Source of the DNA: a virus
Lineage: Duplodnaviria; Heunggongvirae; Uroviricota; Caudoviricetes
DNA: 14,640 bases
Virus record (IMG/VR): IMGVR_UViG_2630968342_000015
Direction: 5' to 3' (one strand)
Shown: positions 6,862-14,457 of the stretch, piece by piece
How the letters are laid out: each line of letters starts with the position of its first letter
Position numbering within the stretch: position 1 is the stretch's first letter
Notes under the pieces: model-generated
What the model was told of the DNA's origin: nothing
Database searches by the model: none
What the model saw: the letters and a program-made list of their open reading frames with translations, nothing else
Program-made: the position numbers and the translations under genes

Positions 6862-6909
6862 TTGTTCGTGGTTGTTCCACGTTGTTCACTGACAGGATCG
6901 GCATATTTT
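6862..6909 (+). promoter_or_regulatory. Phased TTGTTC repeats (6862, 6872, 6882) with candidate -10 TATTTT (6904-6909); putative activator-dependent head-operon promoter
   Basis: TTTGTTCGTGG TTGTTCCACG TTGTTCACTG at exact 10-bp spacing. Third unit sits 16 bp upstream of TATTTT. 15-mer TTGTTCCACGTTGTT recurs exactly at 14375-14389. Confidence 0.4.
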
Positions 6910-7062
6910 ACCCGAACTGAATCATGAGTATTCTCGCCCGTGGTGCCAGGACGCTGGGGCCACTTTCCCGCCTGTTAATGTGCTCGCCAATATTCATTAC
7001 CAGGCGGGAAAACGATCGGTGCGATTGCTGATTTCCTTATGAAAAACGGTTGAGTTTTTGCC

Positions 7063-7102
7063 GCGTCCTGGAGTTCCTTACTTAACCCCAGGACTTTTTT
7101 TT
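7063..7102 (+). terminator. Terminator/attenuator hairpin abutting the capsid start codon, with the SD inside its 3' arm
   Basis: GTCCTGG (7065-7071) pairs with CCAGGAC (7088-7094) across a 16-nt loop, followed by eight T (7095-7102), then ATG at 7103. AGGA (7090-7093) is the only SD-like sequence. Confidence 0.4.
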
Positions 7103-8260
7103 ATGCCGAGAATAATCGAATTACGCCAGCAGAAAACCGCCATTAAAAATCAGATGCGCGACATGCTGGAGAACGCGGAAAAAGAAAACCGCAGCCTTAA
7201 CGATGCAGAGGGCGCAAAATTTGACGAATTACGCGCTAAAGCTGAATCCCTCGATAAAGACATTTCCCGCCTTGAAGCCATTGCAGACGAAGAGCGCAGC
7301 AAGCCAGGTAAAAGCAGCCAGACCACTGACCCGGCAGAACTCCGCAACTACATCCTGACAGGTGAAACCCGCGCATTAAGTACAGGCGTTCCCGCTGATG
7401 GTGGTTATACCGTTATCCCCGAACTGAACACCGAAATCATGCGAATGCTGACGGATGAATCCACCATGCGCCGCATCTGTACCGTGAAGAAAATCAGCAG
7501 CAACGAGTTTAAGCAGCTTGTTTCCGCTGGCGGTGCGACCGTTAACCACGGTGAAGAGGGTAAGACACGCGAACAGACCAGCACCCCGCAGATTAACGAG
7601 GTGAGCATTAAGCTGTATCCGGTCTATGCGTACCCGCGCACCACACAGGAAATCGTGGATTTTTCCGATGTGGACATCCTTTCATGGCTGACGGGTGAGA
7701 TTGGCGACACCTTCACGGAAACCGAAGAAAGCGATCTGGTTGTGGGCGACGGTGACAAAAAAGCAAAAGGTTTTTTATCCGTACCCCGTGCAGAGAAGAA
7801 CGACAAAGAGCGTGATTTTGGTACGTTGCAGGTAATTAAACCTTCCGAATCTCTGGCGTGGACATCTGCGGACCCGCTGATCGACCTGAAATTTGCATTA
7901 CGTAAAAAATACCGCAAAAACGCGGTCTGGGTGGTTAACTCCACGACGGCGGCAAAACTTCAGAAGGTGAAGAACGCGAACGGTGATTACATCTGGCGCG
8001 ACCGTTTACAGGCGGGTGATCCTGATACGTTGCTGGGCCTTCCGGTCGAATATCTGGAGTTTATGCCTGATAACGTTATTGCCCTGGGTGACTTCAAACG
8101 CGGTTACTACATTGTTGATCACGAAACAGGTGTTCGCACCAGACCGGACAACCTCACAGAGCCGGGCTTCATCAAAATTTTCACGCAGAAATATTTAGGC
8201 GGTGGCGTGGTGGATTCGAACGCGATCAAGATTCTGGAACTGCCACAGGACGACGATTAA
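7103..8260 (+). CDS. Major capsid protein, HK97 fold, with N-terminal scaffold-like delta domain
   Basis: 385 aa. Charged, coiled-coil-like N-terminal ~100 aa followed by a body recognised by eye as HK97-family. ATG 7103 preferred over the TTG at 7058 shown in the ORF track. Confidence 0.9.
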   Translation: MPRIIELRQQKTAIKNQMRDMLENAEKENRSLNDAEGAKFDELRAKAESLDKDISRLEAIADEERSKPGKSSQTTDPAELRNYILTGETRALSTGVPADGGYTVIPELNTEIMRMLTDESTMRRICTVKKISSNEFKQLVSAGGATVNHGEEGKTREQTSTPQINEVSIKLYPVYAYPRTTQEIVDFSDVDILSWLTGEIGDTFTETEESDLVVGDGDKKAKGFLSVPRAEKNDKERDFGTLQVIKPSESLAWTSADPLIDLKFALRKKYRKNAVWVVNSTTAAKLQKVKNANGDYIWRDRLQAGDPDTLLGLPVEYLEFMPDNVIALGDFKRGYYIVDHETGVRTRPDNLTEPGFIKIFTQKYLGGGVVDSNAIKILELPQDDD

Positions 8261-8270
8261 CAGCATACAG

Positions 8271-8300
8271 AAGGGGCTTAAAAGCCCCTTTAGTGTTTTA
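8271..8300 (+). terminator. Partial terminator/attenuator between capsid and protease genes
   Basis: AAGGGGC-TTAAAA-GCCCCTT hairpin followed by a T-rich but interrupted tail (TAGTGTTTTA). Confidence 0.4.
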
Positions 8301-8314
8301 TGGGTGAAAAAATT

Positions 8315-8872
8315 ATGAAGAGTATGGAAATCCGGTCATCGGAAATCACCACCAGCGCCAGCAACACGCTTACAGGCTACGTTGTTCGCTGGGATAAGCT
8401 TTCAGAGCTGCTATGGGGGGAGTTTTACGAAAAATTCCAGCGGGGAGCGTTTACTGAATGGCTTGCGGCGGGTAATGACGTTCGCGGCCTGTATGAGCAT
8501 GACCACAGCATGTTGCTGGGGCGTACCCGTTCCGGCACGCTGAAACTGGAAGAGGACGAAACAGGGTTACGCTTTGAACTGACCCCACCGGATACCAGTA
8601 CAGGGCGCGACGTTATCGAACTGGTTAAGCGTGGGGACATCTCGGGGATGAGCTTTGGCTTTCGCTCCCGTAAGGATGTATGGGATACCACAACAGATCC
8701 ATGCGTGCGCACCGTGCTGGTGGCGGAACTGTACGAAATTACCGTTACATCGGTACCGGCTTACCCTGATTCCGGCGTGGAGCTGGCCCGCCGTTCCCTG
8801 TATGAGCAGCACCCCGAAAAAATGCCGCGTGCGGATAATCGCCGCTGGTGGGTGGATTTAGCGGGGGTGTGA
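8315..8872 (+). CDS. Prohead maturation protease, HK97 family
   Basis: Position directly after the capsid gene; motifs LYEHDHS and GMSFGF are consistent with the His/Ser catalytic regions of this family. Start ambiguous (ATG at 8300, 8315 or 8324); 8315 has the best SD. Confidence 0.8.
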   Translation: MKSMEIRSSEITTSASNTLTGYVVRWDKLSELLWGEFYEKFQRGAFTEWLAAGNDVRGLYEHDHSMLLGRTRSGTLKLEEDETGLRFELTPPDTSTGRDVIELVKRGDISGMSFGFRSRKDVWDTTTDPCVRTVLVAELYEITVTSVPAYPDSGVELARRSLYEQHPEKMPRADNRRWWVDLAGV

Positions 8873-8873
8873 T

Positions 8874-10085
8874 ATGTGGCTTTTCAGAAGAAAAAAAGAG
8901 CAGCGCAGCATGACGCTTGATGAATTTATGGCGCTGGCTGGCACATCGAACACGGGGGCGGGTGAGTACGTATCATCGGGGACAGCGGAATCACTGCCCG
9001 CCGTCATGAACGCCGTGACGGTCATCTCTGAGGCGGTGGCTACCATGCCGTGTTACCTGTACCTGGTACGCAATGAGAAGGGGAAGGAGGCCCGCGAGTG
9101 GCTTGATTCTCATCCGGTCGATCACATCCTCAACGAGCGCCCGAACGCGTGGCAGACTCCCTACCAGTTTAAGCGAATGATGATCCGCCACTGCCTGTTA
9201 AACGGTAATGCTTATGCGGTGATTCAGTGGGGGCGTGATGGTTTTCCGGTGGCTTTACATCCTTACCCGCCGCAGTCGGTGAACGTGGAGCAGACAGGCG
9301 AACACAACTGGCGCTACTGCATCACTGACGCCTACACCGGAAACACCCGCAACTATTTACCGTGGGAGGTTCTCCACCTTCGTTACTCCACGGATGACGG
9401 TTTTATGGGGCGCTCACCTGTAACCATCTGCCGCGAATCGCTGGGGCTTGGGCTGGCCCAACAACGCCACGGCGCGAGCGTGATGCGTGATGGCATGATG
9501 GCGGCAGGGGTTATCACGTCAGGCGAATGGCTGGACGGCGTGAAGGGCAAACAGGCATTAGCCGCACTGGAACGCTACAAAGGGGCCAGAAACGCCGGAA
9601 AAACGCCCATCCTTGAAGGGGGTATGAGCTATCAGCAGCTGGGCATGAGTAATCAGGATGCTGAATGGCTGGCCTCCCGTCGCTTCACCATTGAAGACAT
9701 CGCCCGAATGTTCAACGTCTCGCCGATTTTTCTGCAGGAATACAGCAACAGCACCTACAGCAATTTCAGCGAGGCAAGCCGCGCATTTCTCACCATGACA
9801 ATGCGCCCGTGGCTGGCGAACTTTGAGCAGCAGATAAAAAACGCCCTGCTGGTGGCCTCGCCTGTACCTGGTATCCGGTATCAGGTGGAGTTTGACAGCG
9901 CGGACCTGTTACGGGCCACACCTGGCGAACGCTTTGCCACCTATGAACGCGGCATCAAATCCGGCGTTATGTGCCCGAACGAAGCCCGCGAACGTGAAGG
10001 GCTGTCCCCGCGTGATGGTGGTGATGAGTTCAGCCAGGCATGGAAACAGGAAGTAAAAATCAGCGAGGGAGAAAAACCGGAATGA
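8874..10085 (+). CDS. Portal protein, HK97 family
   Basis: 403 aa, recognised by eye as HK97-type portal. ATG 1 nt after the protease stop; its stop overlaps the next start. Confidence 0.85.
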   Translation: MWLFRRKKEQRSMTLDEFMALAGTSNTGAGEYVSSGTAESLPAVMNAVTVISEAVATMPCYLYLVRNEKGKEAREWLDSHPVDHILNERPNAWQTPYQFKRMMIRHCLLNGNAYAVIQWGRDGFPVALHPYPPQSVNVEQTGEHNWRYCITDAYTGNTRNYLPWEVLHLRYSTDDGFMGRSPVTICRESLGLGLAQQRHGASVMRDGMMAAGVITSGEWLDGVKGKQALAALERYKGARNAGKTPILEGGMSYQQLGMSNQDAEWLASRRFTIEDIARMFNVSPIFLQEYSNSTYSNFSEASRAFLTMTMRPWLANFEQQIKNALLVASPVPGIRYQVEFDSADLLRATPGERFATYERGIKSGVMCPNEAREREGLSPRDGGDEFSQAWKQEVKISEGEKPE

Positions 10086-10420
10086 ACATAGGGCGACTGC
10101 GTGACAGGGTAACGATTCAGACCCTGAAACAGACCAGGGATATAACCGGCGAAATACTCGAAACGTGGGAGGACGGTCACACACTCTGGGCAAGCGTGAA
10201 CATGATCAGCAGCAAGGAGGCCATTTCATCGGGTGCAGAGCTGGCGATTGGTACCGTAAGGATCTGGATACGGTACCGGAAGGACATCAATGCCACCAGC
10301 CGGATAAAGGTCAGTACGGGGCCGCTGGCGGGGCGTGTACTGAATATCATCGGGCAGCCGCTGCCGGATGCCGCCAGGACACGCCTTGAAATTCTTTGTC
10401 GTGAGGGCGCGGAAAAATGA
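10082..10420 (+). CDS. Head-tail adaptor / head closure protein
   Basis: 112 aa (MNIGRLRDRVTIQ...). ATGA overlap with portal stop. Pattern resembles head-tail joining proteins. Confidence 0.7.
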   Translation: MNIGRLRDRVTIQTLKQTRDITGEILETWEDGHTLWASVNMISSKEAISSGAELAIGTVRIWIRYRKDINATSRIKVSTGPLAGRVLNIIGQPLPDAARTRLEILCREGAEK

Positions 10421-10713
10421 CAGAAGAACTTATCACCCTGGAAGAAGTGAAACTCCATTGCCGCATCGATGGCGACGAGGAAGACCAGTTAATCAGCGGA
10501 TACATCGCCGCATCGCTTGAGGCGTGCCAGATACACATAGGCAGGCGCTTTGATGACGGGCTGGAGTTCACGCCAGCCATAAAGATTGGCTGCATGATGT
10601 TTATCGCTCACCTGTATGAAAATCGCCAGATTGTCGCGGATAACGCAAAAACACGCGTACCCATGACGATTGGTGCACTCTGGACGGCTTACCGTGATGT
10701 GGGGGTGTACTGA
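10417..10713 (+). CDS. Head-tail connector protein (gp6-like)
   Basis: 98 aa. N-terminus LITLEEVKLHCRIDGDEEDQLISGYIAAS and AHLYENRQ are typical of gp6-like connectors. ATGA overlaps on both sides. Confidence 0.7.
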   Translation: MTEELITLEEVKLHCRIDGDEEDQLISGYIAASLEACQIHIGRRFDDGLEFTPAIKIGCMMFIAHLYENRQIVADNAKTRVPMTIGALWTAYRDVGVY

Positions 10714-11153
10714 TGCCGTGGCAACCATTAAGACGATGCACAGAACCAGGCTGTAACAGGCGCGTGAAGTCCGGCAAGTGTGAGGAGCACAGGCGGGCGG
10801 CATGGCGTGCAGAGGATGCCAGACGAGGACACCGCCGCGCGCGTGGGTACTCCAGACAGTGGGACAAATACCGCGCCATGTATCTGAGTAAAAACCCGTT
10901 ATGCGTGCGATGCCTTGAGAAGGGGATATATACGCCCGCCGTGGTGGTGGATCACATTATCCCGATTAATGGCGGTGATGATGTTCTCTTCTGGCCCGAA
11001 TGGAACCATCAGCCATTGTGCCAGGCGTGCCATAACCAGAAAACGAAATGGCTTGATCCGGCAACAAAAAGCAAGCGTGCCGCAGGTGGATTTCGTGAAG
11101 AGGAAGAACGGGCCGCTAACCGCAATAACTGGATGTATGACGCTGATGAATGA
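10713..11153 (+). CDS. HNH endonuclease (terminase-associated)
   Basis: 146 aa. Cys pairs CNRRVKSGKC and CVRC, then HNH core DHIIPI ... NHQPLCQACHNQKT. Confidence 0.85.
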   Translation: MPWQPLRRCTEPGCNRRVKSGKCEEHRRAAWRAEDARRGHRRARGYSRQWDKYRAMYLSKNPLCVRCLEKGIYTPAVVVDHIIPINGGDDVLFWPEWNHQPLCQACHNQKTKWLDPATKSKRAAGGFREEEERAANRNNWMYDADE

Positions 11154-11319
11154 GCGGGAACAAAACCGCCTTATCCGTGGACTTATAAGGCAGCGTGACG
11201 CATGGAAGACACAGGAAACAGGGCATAAAGATAAAGCGTCAGGACGCGCAGAACGCATCACAGCGAAGCGATTAACCGACCGTGACCGCGAGGTTATGGA
11301 ATGTTTCCGCAATCGCTGA
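11146..11319 (+). CDS. Hypothetical small charged protein (57 aa); uncertain
   Basis: ATG at 11146 overlapping the HNH stop by 8 nt. Only the 3' portion of ORF-track entry 10915..11319 is not in conflict with HNH. Confidence 0.3.
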   Translation: MNEREQNRLIRGLIRQRDAWKTQETGHKDKASGRAERITAKRLTDRDREVMECFRNR

Positions 11320-11441
11320 TGAGGCTGTATGACGGGGTGGGGGGCGTTTTCAGGACAAACCCGACCCCGCCGGGCACCGACCGCCTCCTCAAATTTTTAT
11401 GCACGGGAATTTTTTGAAAAATAATCTGACGAAAAATAAGC
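11320..11441. other. Candidate cos / packaging-initiation region between HNH and terS
   Basis: G-run GGGGTGGGGGGCG followed by C-rich CCCGACCCCGCCGGGCACCGACCGCC, then an AT-rich stretch. Placement between HNH and terS matches HK97-type cos phages. Exact cut site not identifiable by eye. Confidence 0.3.
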
Positions 11442-11798
11442 ATGGCAAGACCACCGAAAGCCCCCGCCTACCTGGATGACATCGCCGTGAAGCAGTGGCG
11501 GGAAAAATCGCGGCAGCTTGCGGAACGGGGAGACCTGACCCCCGCCGACTGGAGCAATCTGGAACTGTATTGTGTCAACTACTCCATTTACCGGAAAGCC
11601 GTCGCAGACCTTGCGGCGCGCGGGTTCAGCATTGTTAACAGTCAGGGCGGCGAGAGCAGAAACCCCGCATTAAGCGCGAAATCAGACGCTGAAAGGGTGA
11701 TGATAAAAATGGCCTCCTTGCTCGGTTTTGACCCGATAAGCCGCCGTAAAAACCCACCGGAAACAGAAGAAGAGGACGAGCTTGACCGCCTGGAATAA
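11442..11798 (+). CDS. terS: Terminase small subunit (P27-family type)
   Basis: 118 aa, immediately upstream of and overlapping terL; acidic C-terminus EEEDELDRLE. Family recognised by eye. Confidence 0.8.
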   Translation: MARPPKAPAYLDDIAVKQWREKSRQLAERGDLTPADWSNLELYCVNYSIYRKAVADLAARGFSIVNSQGGESRNPALSAKSDAERVMIKMASLLGFDPISRRKNPPETEEEDELDRLE

Positions 11799-13443
11799 GT
11801 ACGCAGAAGACGTAAAAACGGGCAAAATTCAGGCCTGTAAACGGTTAAAACAGGCCGTTAAACGGTACTTTTCGGACCTTAAAAGCCCCCTTTACACGTT
11901 CGATCGTGAGGTTGTGGATCGGTTTATTGCCTTTTCCAGGGTGTGCCCGCACGTAAAAGGGCCGATGCGTGGCAGACCCATTGAGCTGGAGCCGTGGCAG
12001 CAGTTCGCCTTTGCGTGCATCCTCGGCTTTAAGGTTAAGGCCACCGGACGGCGCAAATATACGAGCGCCTTTATCGAAGTGCCGCGCAAAAATGCTAAAT
12101 CAACGACCGCCGCGATTCTGGCTAACTGGTTTCTGATTATGGAGAACGGTCAGCAGGATATTTACACCGCAGCGGTGAGCCGTGACCAGGCGAGGATCGT
12201 ATTTGATGATGCGCGTCAGATGTGCATTTTATCCCGACCGTTACGCAGGCGGGTGAATATTCAGGCGCATAAGGTGATACACCCGAAAACCAACAGCCTG
12301 TTAAAGCCGCTGGCAGCAAAAGCGGCAACTATCGAGGGCACAAACCCCAGTCTTTCTATCGTGGACGAATACCACCTACACCCCGACAACGGCGTATATT
12401 CTGCGCTTGAACTGGGGATGGGGGCACGTCCCGAAGGGCTGTTATTTGCCATTACCACATCGGGAAGTAACGTCGTTTCAGCCTGTAAGCAGCATTATGA
12501 TTATTGCTGCCAGATCCTGGACGGCGAAGAGGTTAACGAATCGCTTTTTGTGCTGATTTACGAACTGGACGACGAAAACGAGGTTGATGATCCGGAGATG
12601 TGGATAAAGGCGAACCCTAATATCGATGTTTCCGTGGATCGTGAAAAACTGGCCTCAACCATTCAGAAAGCGCGGGGTATTCCGTCGCAATGGGTGGAGA
12701 TGATGACAAAGCGATTTAATATCTGGTGTCAGGGGACTACCCCGTGGATGGGTAATGGTGCATGGGCTGAGTGTGCCGGAACGTTCACGGAGGAAGATTT
12801 ACACGGTCAGGAGTGTTACGCGGGGCTGGACTTATCATCAACCAGCGATATTTCCAGCGTGTGCTATGCCTTTCCGGTCGGTAAAACCATTATGATGATT
12901 TCCCGTCATTATCTGCCGGAGTTCCAGCTACAGAACCCCGCCAATAAAAACCGCGCTGTCTATCGTCAGTGGGCTAAAGCAGGCTGGATACGCACAACGC
13001 CTGGCGACTGCATTGATTACGACCGGATCAGAGATGACATCATGCAGGACGCGGAGAAATTTAATATCAGGCTGGTGGGCTTTGATACGTGGAACGCCAC
13101 GCATCTCAGAACGCAATTACAGGGGGCAGGTTTTGAGGTGGAGCCGTTCCCGCAAACCTACCTCAGATTCAGTCCGGCGGCGAAATCGTTCGAAGTTTTT
13201 GTTAACCGCAGGGTGATTGTGCATCGTGGCGATCCGGTGTTGTCCTGGTCGATGAGTAACGTCGTGATGCAGAGTGACGCGAACGCCAATATCAAGCCGA
13301 ACAAGAAAAAATCACCGAACAAGATAGACCCGAGCGTGGCGGCGCTGATGGCGTTTGGTACATTCCAGGCAGAGCATGAGGATTTTGCTTTTGATATAAG
13401 CGACAGCCACCGCCAGAAACTGGAAGAATTTAGCGGGGTGTAA
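11782..13443 (+). CDS. terL: Terminase large subunit
   Basis: 553 aa. N-terminus MTAWNKYAEDVKTGKIQACKRL is typical of TerL. Apparent TTG start at 11782 with SD GAGGA (11772-11776), overlapping terS by 17 nt. Confidence 0.9.
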   Translation: MTAWNKYAEDVKTGKIQACKRLKQAVKRYFSDLKSPLYTFDREVVDRFIAFSRVCPHVKGPMRGRPIELEPWQQFAFACILGFKVKATGRRKYTSAFIEVPRKNAKSTTAAILANWFLIMENGQQDIYTAAVSRDQARIVFDDARQMCILSRPLRRRVNIQAHKVIHPKTNSLLKPLAAKAATIEGTNPSLSIVDEYHLHPDNGVYSALELGMGARPEGLLFAITTSGSNVVSACKQHYDYCCQILDGEEVNESLFVLIYELDDENEVDDPEMWIKANPNIDVSVDREKLASTIQKARGIPSQWVEMMTKRFNIWCQGTTPWMGNGAWAECAGTFTEEDLHGQECYAGLDLSSTSDISSVCYAFPVGKTIMMISRHYLPEFQLQNPANKNRAVYRQWAKAGWIRTTPGDCIDYDRIRDDIMQDAEKFNIRLVGFDTWNATHLRTQLQGAGFEVEPFPQTYLRFSPAAKSFEVFVNRRVIVHRGDPVLSWSMSNVVMQSDANANIKPNKKKSPNKIDPSVAALMAFGTFQAEHEDFAFDISDSHRQKLEEFSGV

Positions 13444-13456
13444 TGAGGTCAGCAGC

Positions 13457-13738
13457 ATGACAGAAGCCGAAATAACGGGATTAATCCGCCGCGTTGCCGG
13501 AATCAGCCAGCAGGCTGACGAACAGGCCACGCAGCCGGACAGCGTGACAGCCGAAAACTATGCGCGTGTTGTTGCTGAGGTGATGCGCCGTGATGGTATA
13601 GAACTTAATGGCGTGGATATGCGCAACATACGAACCAGAGTTCTTGAGTTGCTGGCCTACCGTCGCCGCGTGGAGATGTATCGGGAGAAGGAGAAAATAA
13701 CGTACCACTGGAAGAAGCCGGAGCGGTTGCGGCGGTAA
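13457..13738 (+). CDS. Hypothetical protein (93 aa), last gene of the element
   Basis: ATG 13457 with SD GAGG. No recognisable family. Confidence 0.5.
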   Translation: MTEAEITGLIRRVAGISQQADEQATQPDSVTAENYARVVAEVMRRDGIELNGVDMRNIRTRVLELLAYRRRVEMYREKEKITYHWKKPERLRR

Positions 13739-14030
13739 CTGGTTGATATTCCCGACGGACCAAAAATGGGTGGCTACATCCCTCGCTTCTGAGGACTGTT
13801 AACAAGCTGCCTGAAAGACAGTCACAAACTACGAAATTTTCGCAGTTTAATTAATGATCAGCTTAATCGCTAACCCGCTGATATTTTCGGAAACCTCAAT
13901 TTGAGGAAGTCGGCGCGGTAACTCGCTGAACTTTAAGCAAAGTGCAAAATTGCGCTTGCTGAATAATCATTATGATTACGCAGATGATTAAGGAATGACC
14001 GAAGGCGGAAATTCGCCTGTGGTTAATGGG

Positions 14031-14361: not shown

Positions 14362-14457
14362 TTCTTGTGTCTATTTGTTCCACGTTGTTTCATACAGTGC
14401 ACCGAACGGTGTAGTCACTGGTGTAGTCATTTTGCGATTTTTGGCACTTTTTGCGGT
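14362..14457. repeat. Right-arm repeats near the junction: TTGTTCCACG TTGTTTCATA (14375-14394), tandem GGTGTAGTCA(C/T) (14408-14418, 14420-14430), TTTTGCG repeats
   Basis: Read directly. The 15-mer at 14375-14389 is identical to 6872-6886. Candidate integrase/excisionase arm-type sites. Confidence 0.4.

Follow-up and report, generated by a model that had tools for sequence, protein, structure and literature searches.

The capsid-first packaging module of an Escherichia coli G1/2 island has the gene order of proteobacterial phage-inducible chromosomal islands that form capsids

Phage-inducible chromosomal islands of the capsid-forming type (cf-PICIs), of which the 15.4-kb EcCIEDL933 is the prototype, are the closest described systems to the element analysed here, an island carried by a stretch of viral DNA of 14,640 nucleotides (IMG/VR record IMGVR_UViG_2630968342_000015, Caudoviricetes), the whole of which is referred to below as the window. 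Its head and packaging module runs from capsid to terminase, and this exact order was reported to be conserved among the cf-PICIs of proteobacteria by Alqurainy et al. (bioRxiv 10.1101/2022.09.08.507074), who placed the capsids and large terminase subunits (TerL) of these islands in clades apart from those of phages, with three independent origins; published trees indicate a monophyletic proteobacterial cf-PICI clade. In the same study, knockout of each EcCIEDL933 packaging gene ended transfer of the island and left the helper unaffected, the exception being hypothetical gene 1792, the mutant of which showed severely reduced transfer. Helper capsid mutants still permitted transfer of the island, whilst helper tail mutants ended that of both island and phage. 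The prototype is known to encode its own small capsids, to package itself specifically through its own HNH, TerS (small terminase subunit) and TerL, and to use helper tails; expression of its alpA is induced by the helper and an alpA mutant loses transfer. A follow-up preprint (10.1101/2025.02.11.637232) named this order among its search criteria, reported a T=4 capsid and found that the adaptor and connector proteins decide tail choice. SatelliteFinder (PMC10085698) recognises these islands by 11 core components and treats tails and holins as forbidden; it listed 969 cfPICIs, found in 13% of Enterobacteriaceae genomes. The islands reportedly pass between species as tail-less capsids, acquiring tails from other phages.

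The window is 100% identical to part of the E. coli G1/2 chromosome (NZ_CP060083.1), and we consider it almost certain that it holds an integrated cf-PICI that is a close variant of EcCIEDL933. According to the RefSeq annotation the island interrupts tqsA, with pntB and mdtJ on either side. Comparison with an uninterrupted tqsA identified a 9-bp direct repeat, ATAACAGCA, at both island junctions, the left copy (attL) lying 187-195 nt upstream of the first base of the window. The island is therefore bounded at window positions -186 and 14512 and measures approximately 14.7 kb, which falls within the ~10-18 kb range for cf-PICIs taken from the follow-up preprint, with att repeats at its ends and an integrase at the left end, the annotated start of which is 12 nt upstream of the window. 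A tandem repeat, GGTGTAGTCA(CT) x2, is found near both island ends, in each case between the att core and the coding genes (the left copy at L001:5942-5965, beginning 59 and ending 36 nt upstream of the window); these repeats are probably integrase arm-type binding sites.

On the EDL933 chromosome an island with the same gene order throughout lies between roxA and phoQ, and its size, strain, gene content and locus-tag number '1792' match those of EcCIEDL933. Using blastn, window 5586-13750, which spans ssb-perC and the whole packaging module, is 97.7% identical to this island at the DNA level, and the left arm carrying int-alpA-icd (window 4-2801) is 94.3% identical. The major capsid protein (MCP) is 100% and TerL 98% identical to those of EcCIEDL933, the integrase has 91% protein identity (tblastn), and the MCP, connector, TerS, SSB, PerC and several small open reading frames (ORFs) share WP accessions with the prototype. 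The two islands differ in their integration site (the interior of tqsA here, the roxA-phoQ interval in EDL933), in size, and in the replication module at 2800-5586, which is not conserved in blastn comparisons; here it encodes a D5_N/Pox_D5 primase-helicase, whereas EcCIEDL933 has a DUF927 protein and three extra small ORFs (L003:3630-7108). The presence of a swapped replication module between flanks of 94-98% identity points to modular recombination between satellites.

Within 7103-13443 the gene order is MCP, S78 protease, portal, head closure, gp6-like connector, HNH, a 60-aa ORF, TerS and TerL (Table 1). The ORF listing and Pfam scans show all of these genes to be intact and on the + strand, and the eight head and packaging genes all scored over the Pfam gathering cut-off. 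The MCP is identical over 385/385 residues to PDB 9gyi_B, deposited as 'Major head protein', and the protein of the Phage_HCP family, here termed head closure, is the one named 'adaptor' in the cf-PICI papers. The gene list, order and coordinates of a first-pass annotation made from the sequence were thereby borne out, the 60-aa ORF that separates HNH from the presumed cos region being an addition to that list. However, its mention of many ATGA coupling overlaps was overstated, as the module contains two (portal/closure at 10082-10085 and closure/connector at 10417-10420) together with a TGATG junction at 10713 and 17-nt overlaps at HNH/orf60 and terS/terL; further ATGA overlaps are found in the island outside the module, at 3421 and 5768.

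Table 1. Coordinates of features in the window.
Feature	Position	Strand	Evidence and remarks
Tyrosine integrase, intact	1-1218	+	Pfam Arm-DNA-bind_3, Phage_integrase; RefSeq annotation
AlpA regulator/excisionase, PICI induction switch	1593-1781	+	PF05930 Phage_AlpA, E=1.9e-17; phrog_2790
Primase-helicase, 605 aa	3421-5238	+	D5_N / DUF5906 / Pox_D5
SSB	5768-6178	+	Same WP accession as EcCIEDL933
PerC-family regulator	6189-6461	+	Same WP accession as EcCIEDL933
Small conserved gene, 74-aa ORF	6586-6810		phrog_1957; just upstream of packaging operon
Terminator-like hairpin ending upstream unit	6821-6838	+	
HK97-fold MCP, 385 aa	7103-8260	+	PF05065, 2.6e-61; WP_001137345.1, shared with EDL933
GC-rich hairpin with T-tract	8270-8291	+	Directly 3' of MCP stop codon
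Prohead serine protease, Peptidase_S78	8300-8872	+	Pfam, 4.4e-48
Portal	8874-10085	+	Pfam, 9.1e-91
Head-closure protein, Phage_HCP, HK97 gp7-like	10082-10420	+	Pfam, 5.2e-23
gp6-like head-tail connector (HK97 gp6 / Ad1-like)	10417-10713	+	Pfam, 8.4e-12
HNH endonuclease, packaging cofactor of TerS/TerL	10713-11153	+	PF01844, 1.8e-8
Conserved 60-aa ORF	11137-11319	+	phrog_3173, E=7.5e-37; WP accession shared with EcCIEDL933
Probable cos region, GGGGTGGGGGGCGTTTTCAGGAC	11334-11356	+	Aligns with extreme right end of LR881103.1
TerS, P27 family, Terminase_4	11442-11798	+	PF05119, 1.3e-23
TerL, TTG start	11782-13443	+	PF03354 and PF20441 (ATPase and nuclease domains)
Conserved 93-aa ORF, last gene of island	13457-13738	+	phrog_1561
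Tandem GGTGTAGTCA repeat	14408-14429	+	Second copy upstream of int, outside window
attR core, ATAACAGCA	14504-14512	+	Comparison with empty tqsA site; tqsA sequence picks up again here

The island has all eight head and packaging genes in the conserved order (capsid-protease-portal-connectors, then hnh-terS-terL), an AlpA-type regulator in the regulation module, and its own replication module, comprised of the D5-type primase-helicase and SSB. With int, alpA and pri-rep added to the eight, 11/11 of the SatelliteFinder core components are present, which corresponds to 'Type A'. When the annotated genes and larger unannotated ORFs were examined with Pfam and PHROGs, the forbidden tail, holin and lysis families were absent from the island. 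An HK97-like tailed temperate phage would be expected to have modules for tail, lysis and immunity and to run terS-terL-portal-protease-MCP; the island has no tail or lysis genes, a different order and a length of only ~14.7 kb.

The first-pass annotation had read the order as the organisation of a distinct lineage and not as a recent fragment of a phage, to be judged by synteny with HK97-like phages and cf-PICIs. The distribution of the order was examined in 70 loci with MCP relatives, drawn from species-representative genomes and IMG/VR, together with phage records, onto which the eight proteins of the module and the proteins of HK97 and VW-6S were mapped by tblastn. Among the loci with a readable order, the two orders separated cleanly according to MCP identity. 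Where the MCP was at least 58% identical (n=59 loci), capsid was followed by protease in 57, the other two being truncated by the contig end, and all of the loci in which the eight genes were detected (45/45) had the order of the window. Where it was below 45% (n=16), the HK97 order was found in 15/15 readable loci, true tailed phages included. As 45/45 related loci with the full set repeat it, the order is not due to chance, nor was it found to be common in ordinary tailed prophages. The concordant loci fall into approximately seven lineages, namely E. coli/Shigella, a group at 69-70% MCP identity which includes Citrobacter, Rosenbergiella (74%), Erwinia (66%), Gilliamella (66%), vB_KppS-Ant (65%) and Pasteurella (58%). 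Together with the 97.7% identity to EcCIEDL933, this supports the proposal and its cf-PICI comparison, and we conclude that the order capsid-protease-portal-closure-connector-HNH-cos-terS-terL is a signature conserved in the clade of proteobacterial cf-PICIs.

The separation from phages was judged from identity gaps and published trees. In the phage collection MCP identity falls from 58% to 40% at the nearest true phages, and TerL identity from 68% to 36%, so that by these values both proteins group with cf-PICIs apart from their phage homologues. Of the true phages, the two nearest MCP matches that were examined (VW-6S and YeP1) keep to the canonical order, and no close phage to the module was found, megablast against the phage collection returning only 4 weak partial matches. 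Phage-collection records with at least 58% MCP or at least 68% TerL identity are small (10.7-16.5 kb), apart from one 3.8-kb fragment and one 106-kb record, and the two small ones examined, vB_KppS-Ant and Pmp8, are without a tail module. The tail search in related loci by tblastn used HK97 and VW-6S tail proteins only and is a weak test, to which Pfam scans were added; in three diverged loci, the Citrobacter, Erwinia and Gilliamella relatives, these scans found no tail genes downstream of terL, the position being occupied by host or accessory genes instead.

Several of these loci have features of their own. The long record, a 106.5-kb 'Klebsiella phage' (L080; PQ569648.1, 84000-106503), ends in ~16 kb that hold, in virion permutation, the terL-to-portal portion of a cf-PICI, with terS/terL at ~90.6-92.6 kb, the MCP gene at 102.3 kb and the portal gene at ~104-105 kb; this portion probably represents a satellite that was co-assembled or concatenated, not a part of the phage. 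The 15.3-kb Pasteurella 'phage' Pmp8 (L006) has a tail terminator gene (Phage_tail_U) that lies just upstream of its capsid gene (L006 14914-15321) and an HK97 gp10-like gene after terL (8244-8702), which suggests a Pasteurellaceae variant providing more of the head-tail joining apparatus. In LR881103.1 (L005) the accessory slot after terL holds a 765-aa protein labelled 'tail length tape measure protein' (2036-4333); no Pfam support was found for this label, which is likely to be wrong, and the gene was not counted as a tail gene and probably has an accessory or defence role. Two cf-PICI relatives with MCPs ~70% identical (L062 and L066) are inserted within the terL gene of a prophage, with TerL residues 1-200 upstream of the element and 195-526 downstream (L062:1476-2096 and 17065-18102; L066:1573-2196 and 18345-19376). 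The prophages hosting them have the canonical (HNH-)terS-terL-portal order, an upstream HNH being detected only in L062, and thus both gene orders occur in one locus, in a manner resembling the published 'helper-embedded' satellites. A third arrangement, portal-protease-MCP-HNH ... terS-terL, was seen in L018, L020 and L076, which derive from uncultured Bartonella metagenome-assembled genomes and IMG/VR and have MCPs ~30-33% identical to that of the window. In these loci the head block precedes HNH, a position shared with cf-PICIs, and its internal order is canonical; L018 and L020 have a weak (26%) tape-measure-like tblastn match after terL.

Of the terminator-like hairpins in the region, the strongest is the one directly after the capsid gene. 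It takes the form GGGGC-loop-GCCCC with a T-rich tail, 5-15 nt past the capsid stop codon. A GC hairpin is kept at this place in 10/10 diverged relatives (L005, L006, L011-L014, L063, L065, L067 and L068), its position being retained while its flanks have diverged, and in HK97 a putative terminator is annotated at the equivalent position. Speculatively, it could be an attenuator or an RNA-stabilising element which sets capsid stoichiometry. This leads to a different reading of the locus, in which the capsid-first order is tied to the hairpin and, separately, the tqsA island with its D5-type replicon is an undescribed recombinant with another helper range. If this were true, placing the capsid gene next to the promoter, with a leaky terminator or an RNA-stabilising hairpin behind it, would give a high ratio of MCP to portal and terminase from a single operon, and stoichiometry control would be a selective reason for a lineage-specific gene order. 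We regard this reading as unlikely.

Defective prophages are abundant in E. coli genomes. The proteins of the module belong to HK97-type families and the island lacks tail genes, so it could be asked whether it is a decayed HK97-like prophage remnant from which tail and lysis genes were deleted and in which the order was scrambled, i.e., a recent phage fragment without autonomous biology. However, all ORFs are intact, the att repeats are precise and accompanied by an intact integrase, and both the eight-gene order and the missing tail module are shared by ~7 lineages with MCP identities of 58-100%. As no phage exceeds 40% (MCP) or 36% (TerL), and a near-identical prototype is experimentally functional, decay of this kind is very improbable.

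In the HK97 genome (NC_002167.1) the order is terS, terL, portal, protease, MCP, Ad1, Hc1 and tail genes, with HNH at the extreme right end, which confirms the reference order against which the first-pass annotation had called the window non-canonical. Only part of that departure is real. LR881103.1 is a linear record of 16.5 kb obtained from an induced lysate. Its first genes are terS (at nt 23) and terL; int, regulators and primase come next, then MCP, protease, portal, closure and connector, and the record stops just past HNH and a small ORF. Its extreme right end aligns with window 11334-11356, within the orf60-terS gap, and the exact cos cleavage site would accordingly be placed between orf60 and terS. 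Judging from the ends of this record, the cos-cut element would read terS-terL first and HNH last, like HK97. It is the integrated coordinates that put the terminase genes last and HNH away from the far end, because att and int lie directly downstream of terL. Two rearrangements stand, as read from the gene maps: (a) the head block is upstream of HNH and not downstream of terL, and (b) MCP-protease-portal and Hc1-Ad1 are reversed in gene order relative to gp3-4-5 and gp6-7 of HK97, although still co-directional. The distinction bears on whether the island could be an ordinary HK97-like temperate phage in permuted prophage coordinates, the odd order arising purely from the point at which the map is cut open. 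Permutation does account for the position of the terminase genes and of HNH, as LR881103.1 illustrates by opening with terS-terL and closing after HNH, but it cannot convert portal-protease-capsid to capsid-protease-portal, or Ad1-Hc1 to Hc1-Ad1, on one strand, and the att-bounded element has only ~14.7 kb with no tail or lysis genes. Such a phage therefore has scarcely any probability left to it.

Least credible of all is a domesticated, host-controlled particle system akin to a gene transfer agent (GTA) and not dependent on a helper, which would fit the making of capsids without tails and the PDB matches that follow 9gyi (6tb9 and 6tba, GTA capsid proteins of Rhodobacter capsulatus), but is contradicted by int, alpA, att and an own replicon, which mark a mobile element, by the patchy presence of the packaging module (538/5426 complete E. 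coli genomes) and the different insertion sites in G1/2 and EDL933, by a cos-specific terminase with HNH, and by a prototype that packages itself specifically and requires helper tails. The remnant, permuted-phage and GTA-like explanations were all rejected.

As a cf-PICI, the G1/2 island would be predicted to have the following life cycle. A helper phage would trigger alpA, and the island would excise at its att sites and replicate by its own primase-helicase. One co-directional operon (7103-13738) would then give rise to the island's own small capsid (T=4 reported) from MCP, maturation protease and portal, whilst its own HNH, TerS and TerL would cut island concatemers at cos between HNH/orf60 and terS, packaging island DNA only. 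The closure protein and gp6-like connector would complete the neck and determine which helper tails dock, tails being the sole helper-derived part. From the 97.7% identity of the module, we infer that the G1/2 variant behaves like the prototype, with helper induction, own small capsids and helper-tail-dependent transfer.

Some points weigh against this account and should be considered with caution. Of the 57 concordant loci, the majority are E. coli copies of nearly the same sequence, and it is only the ~7 diverged lineages that are independent. The mechanism was shown experimentally for EcCIEDL933 and is extended to the G1/2 island by near-identity, from a reading of its genes; helper-phage range and inducibility likewise can only be presumed from the prototype, because the replication module (2800-5586) and attB differ. 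The cos position derives from one deposited linear record, the ends of which were possibly set by the depositor. In addition, a promoter scan upstream of the capsid gene found no sigma-70 consensus on the + strand in 6840-7100, the interval in which the morphogenetic operon probably has its own promoter given that the hairpin at 6821-6838 closes the upstream unit.

The left half of the island also encodes an Icd-like protein and a DUF4222 protein. The hairpin at 6821-6838, after the 74-aa ORF, has a near-identical terminator-like counterpart after perC at 6467-6484, both of the form AGCCGGAG[A/C]AATCCGGCT followed by a T run, and the pair flanks the small conserved gene.

The correct annotation of the locus would be that of a functional-looking cf-PICI satellite and not a defective prophage, and its recognition as a cf-PICI is relevant to analyses of the mobilome, defence and gene transfer in the G1/2 strain. 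The order of the genes, the fact that it is conserved and its separateness in phylogeny are already known, having been published in 2022-2023, and for that reason no new question is opened by them.

Besides EcCIEDL933, other proteobacterial cf-PICI-like elements (LR881103.1, Pmp7/Pmp8 and those of Citrobacter, Erwinia, Gilliamella and Rosenbergiella) have the same capsid-to-terL order and MCPs 58-74% identical to that of the window; they are 10-17 kb in size and without a tail module, some having been deposited as phages, and their accessory genes vary. With HK97 and HK97-like cos/HNH phages the island shares the protein families (HK97-fold MCP, S78 protease, portal, gp6/gp7-type neck proteins, P27-type TerS, TerL and HNH cofactor), the adjacency of HNH-cos-terS-terL on the circular map and a hairpin after the capsid gene, but it has no tail, lysis or immunity genes and is ~14.7 kb as opposed to 39.7 kb. 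The classical Gram-negative PICIs, such as EcCICFT073 and EcCIED1a, share the int-alpA-pri/rep left half and the logic of helper-dependent, alpA-mediated induction; according to the literature they differ in being without capsid, portal and TerL, and instead redirect the packaging of the helper via Rpp or TerS.

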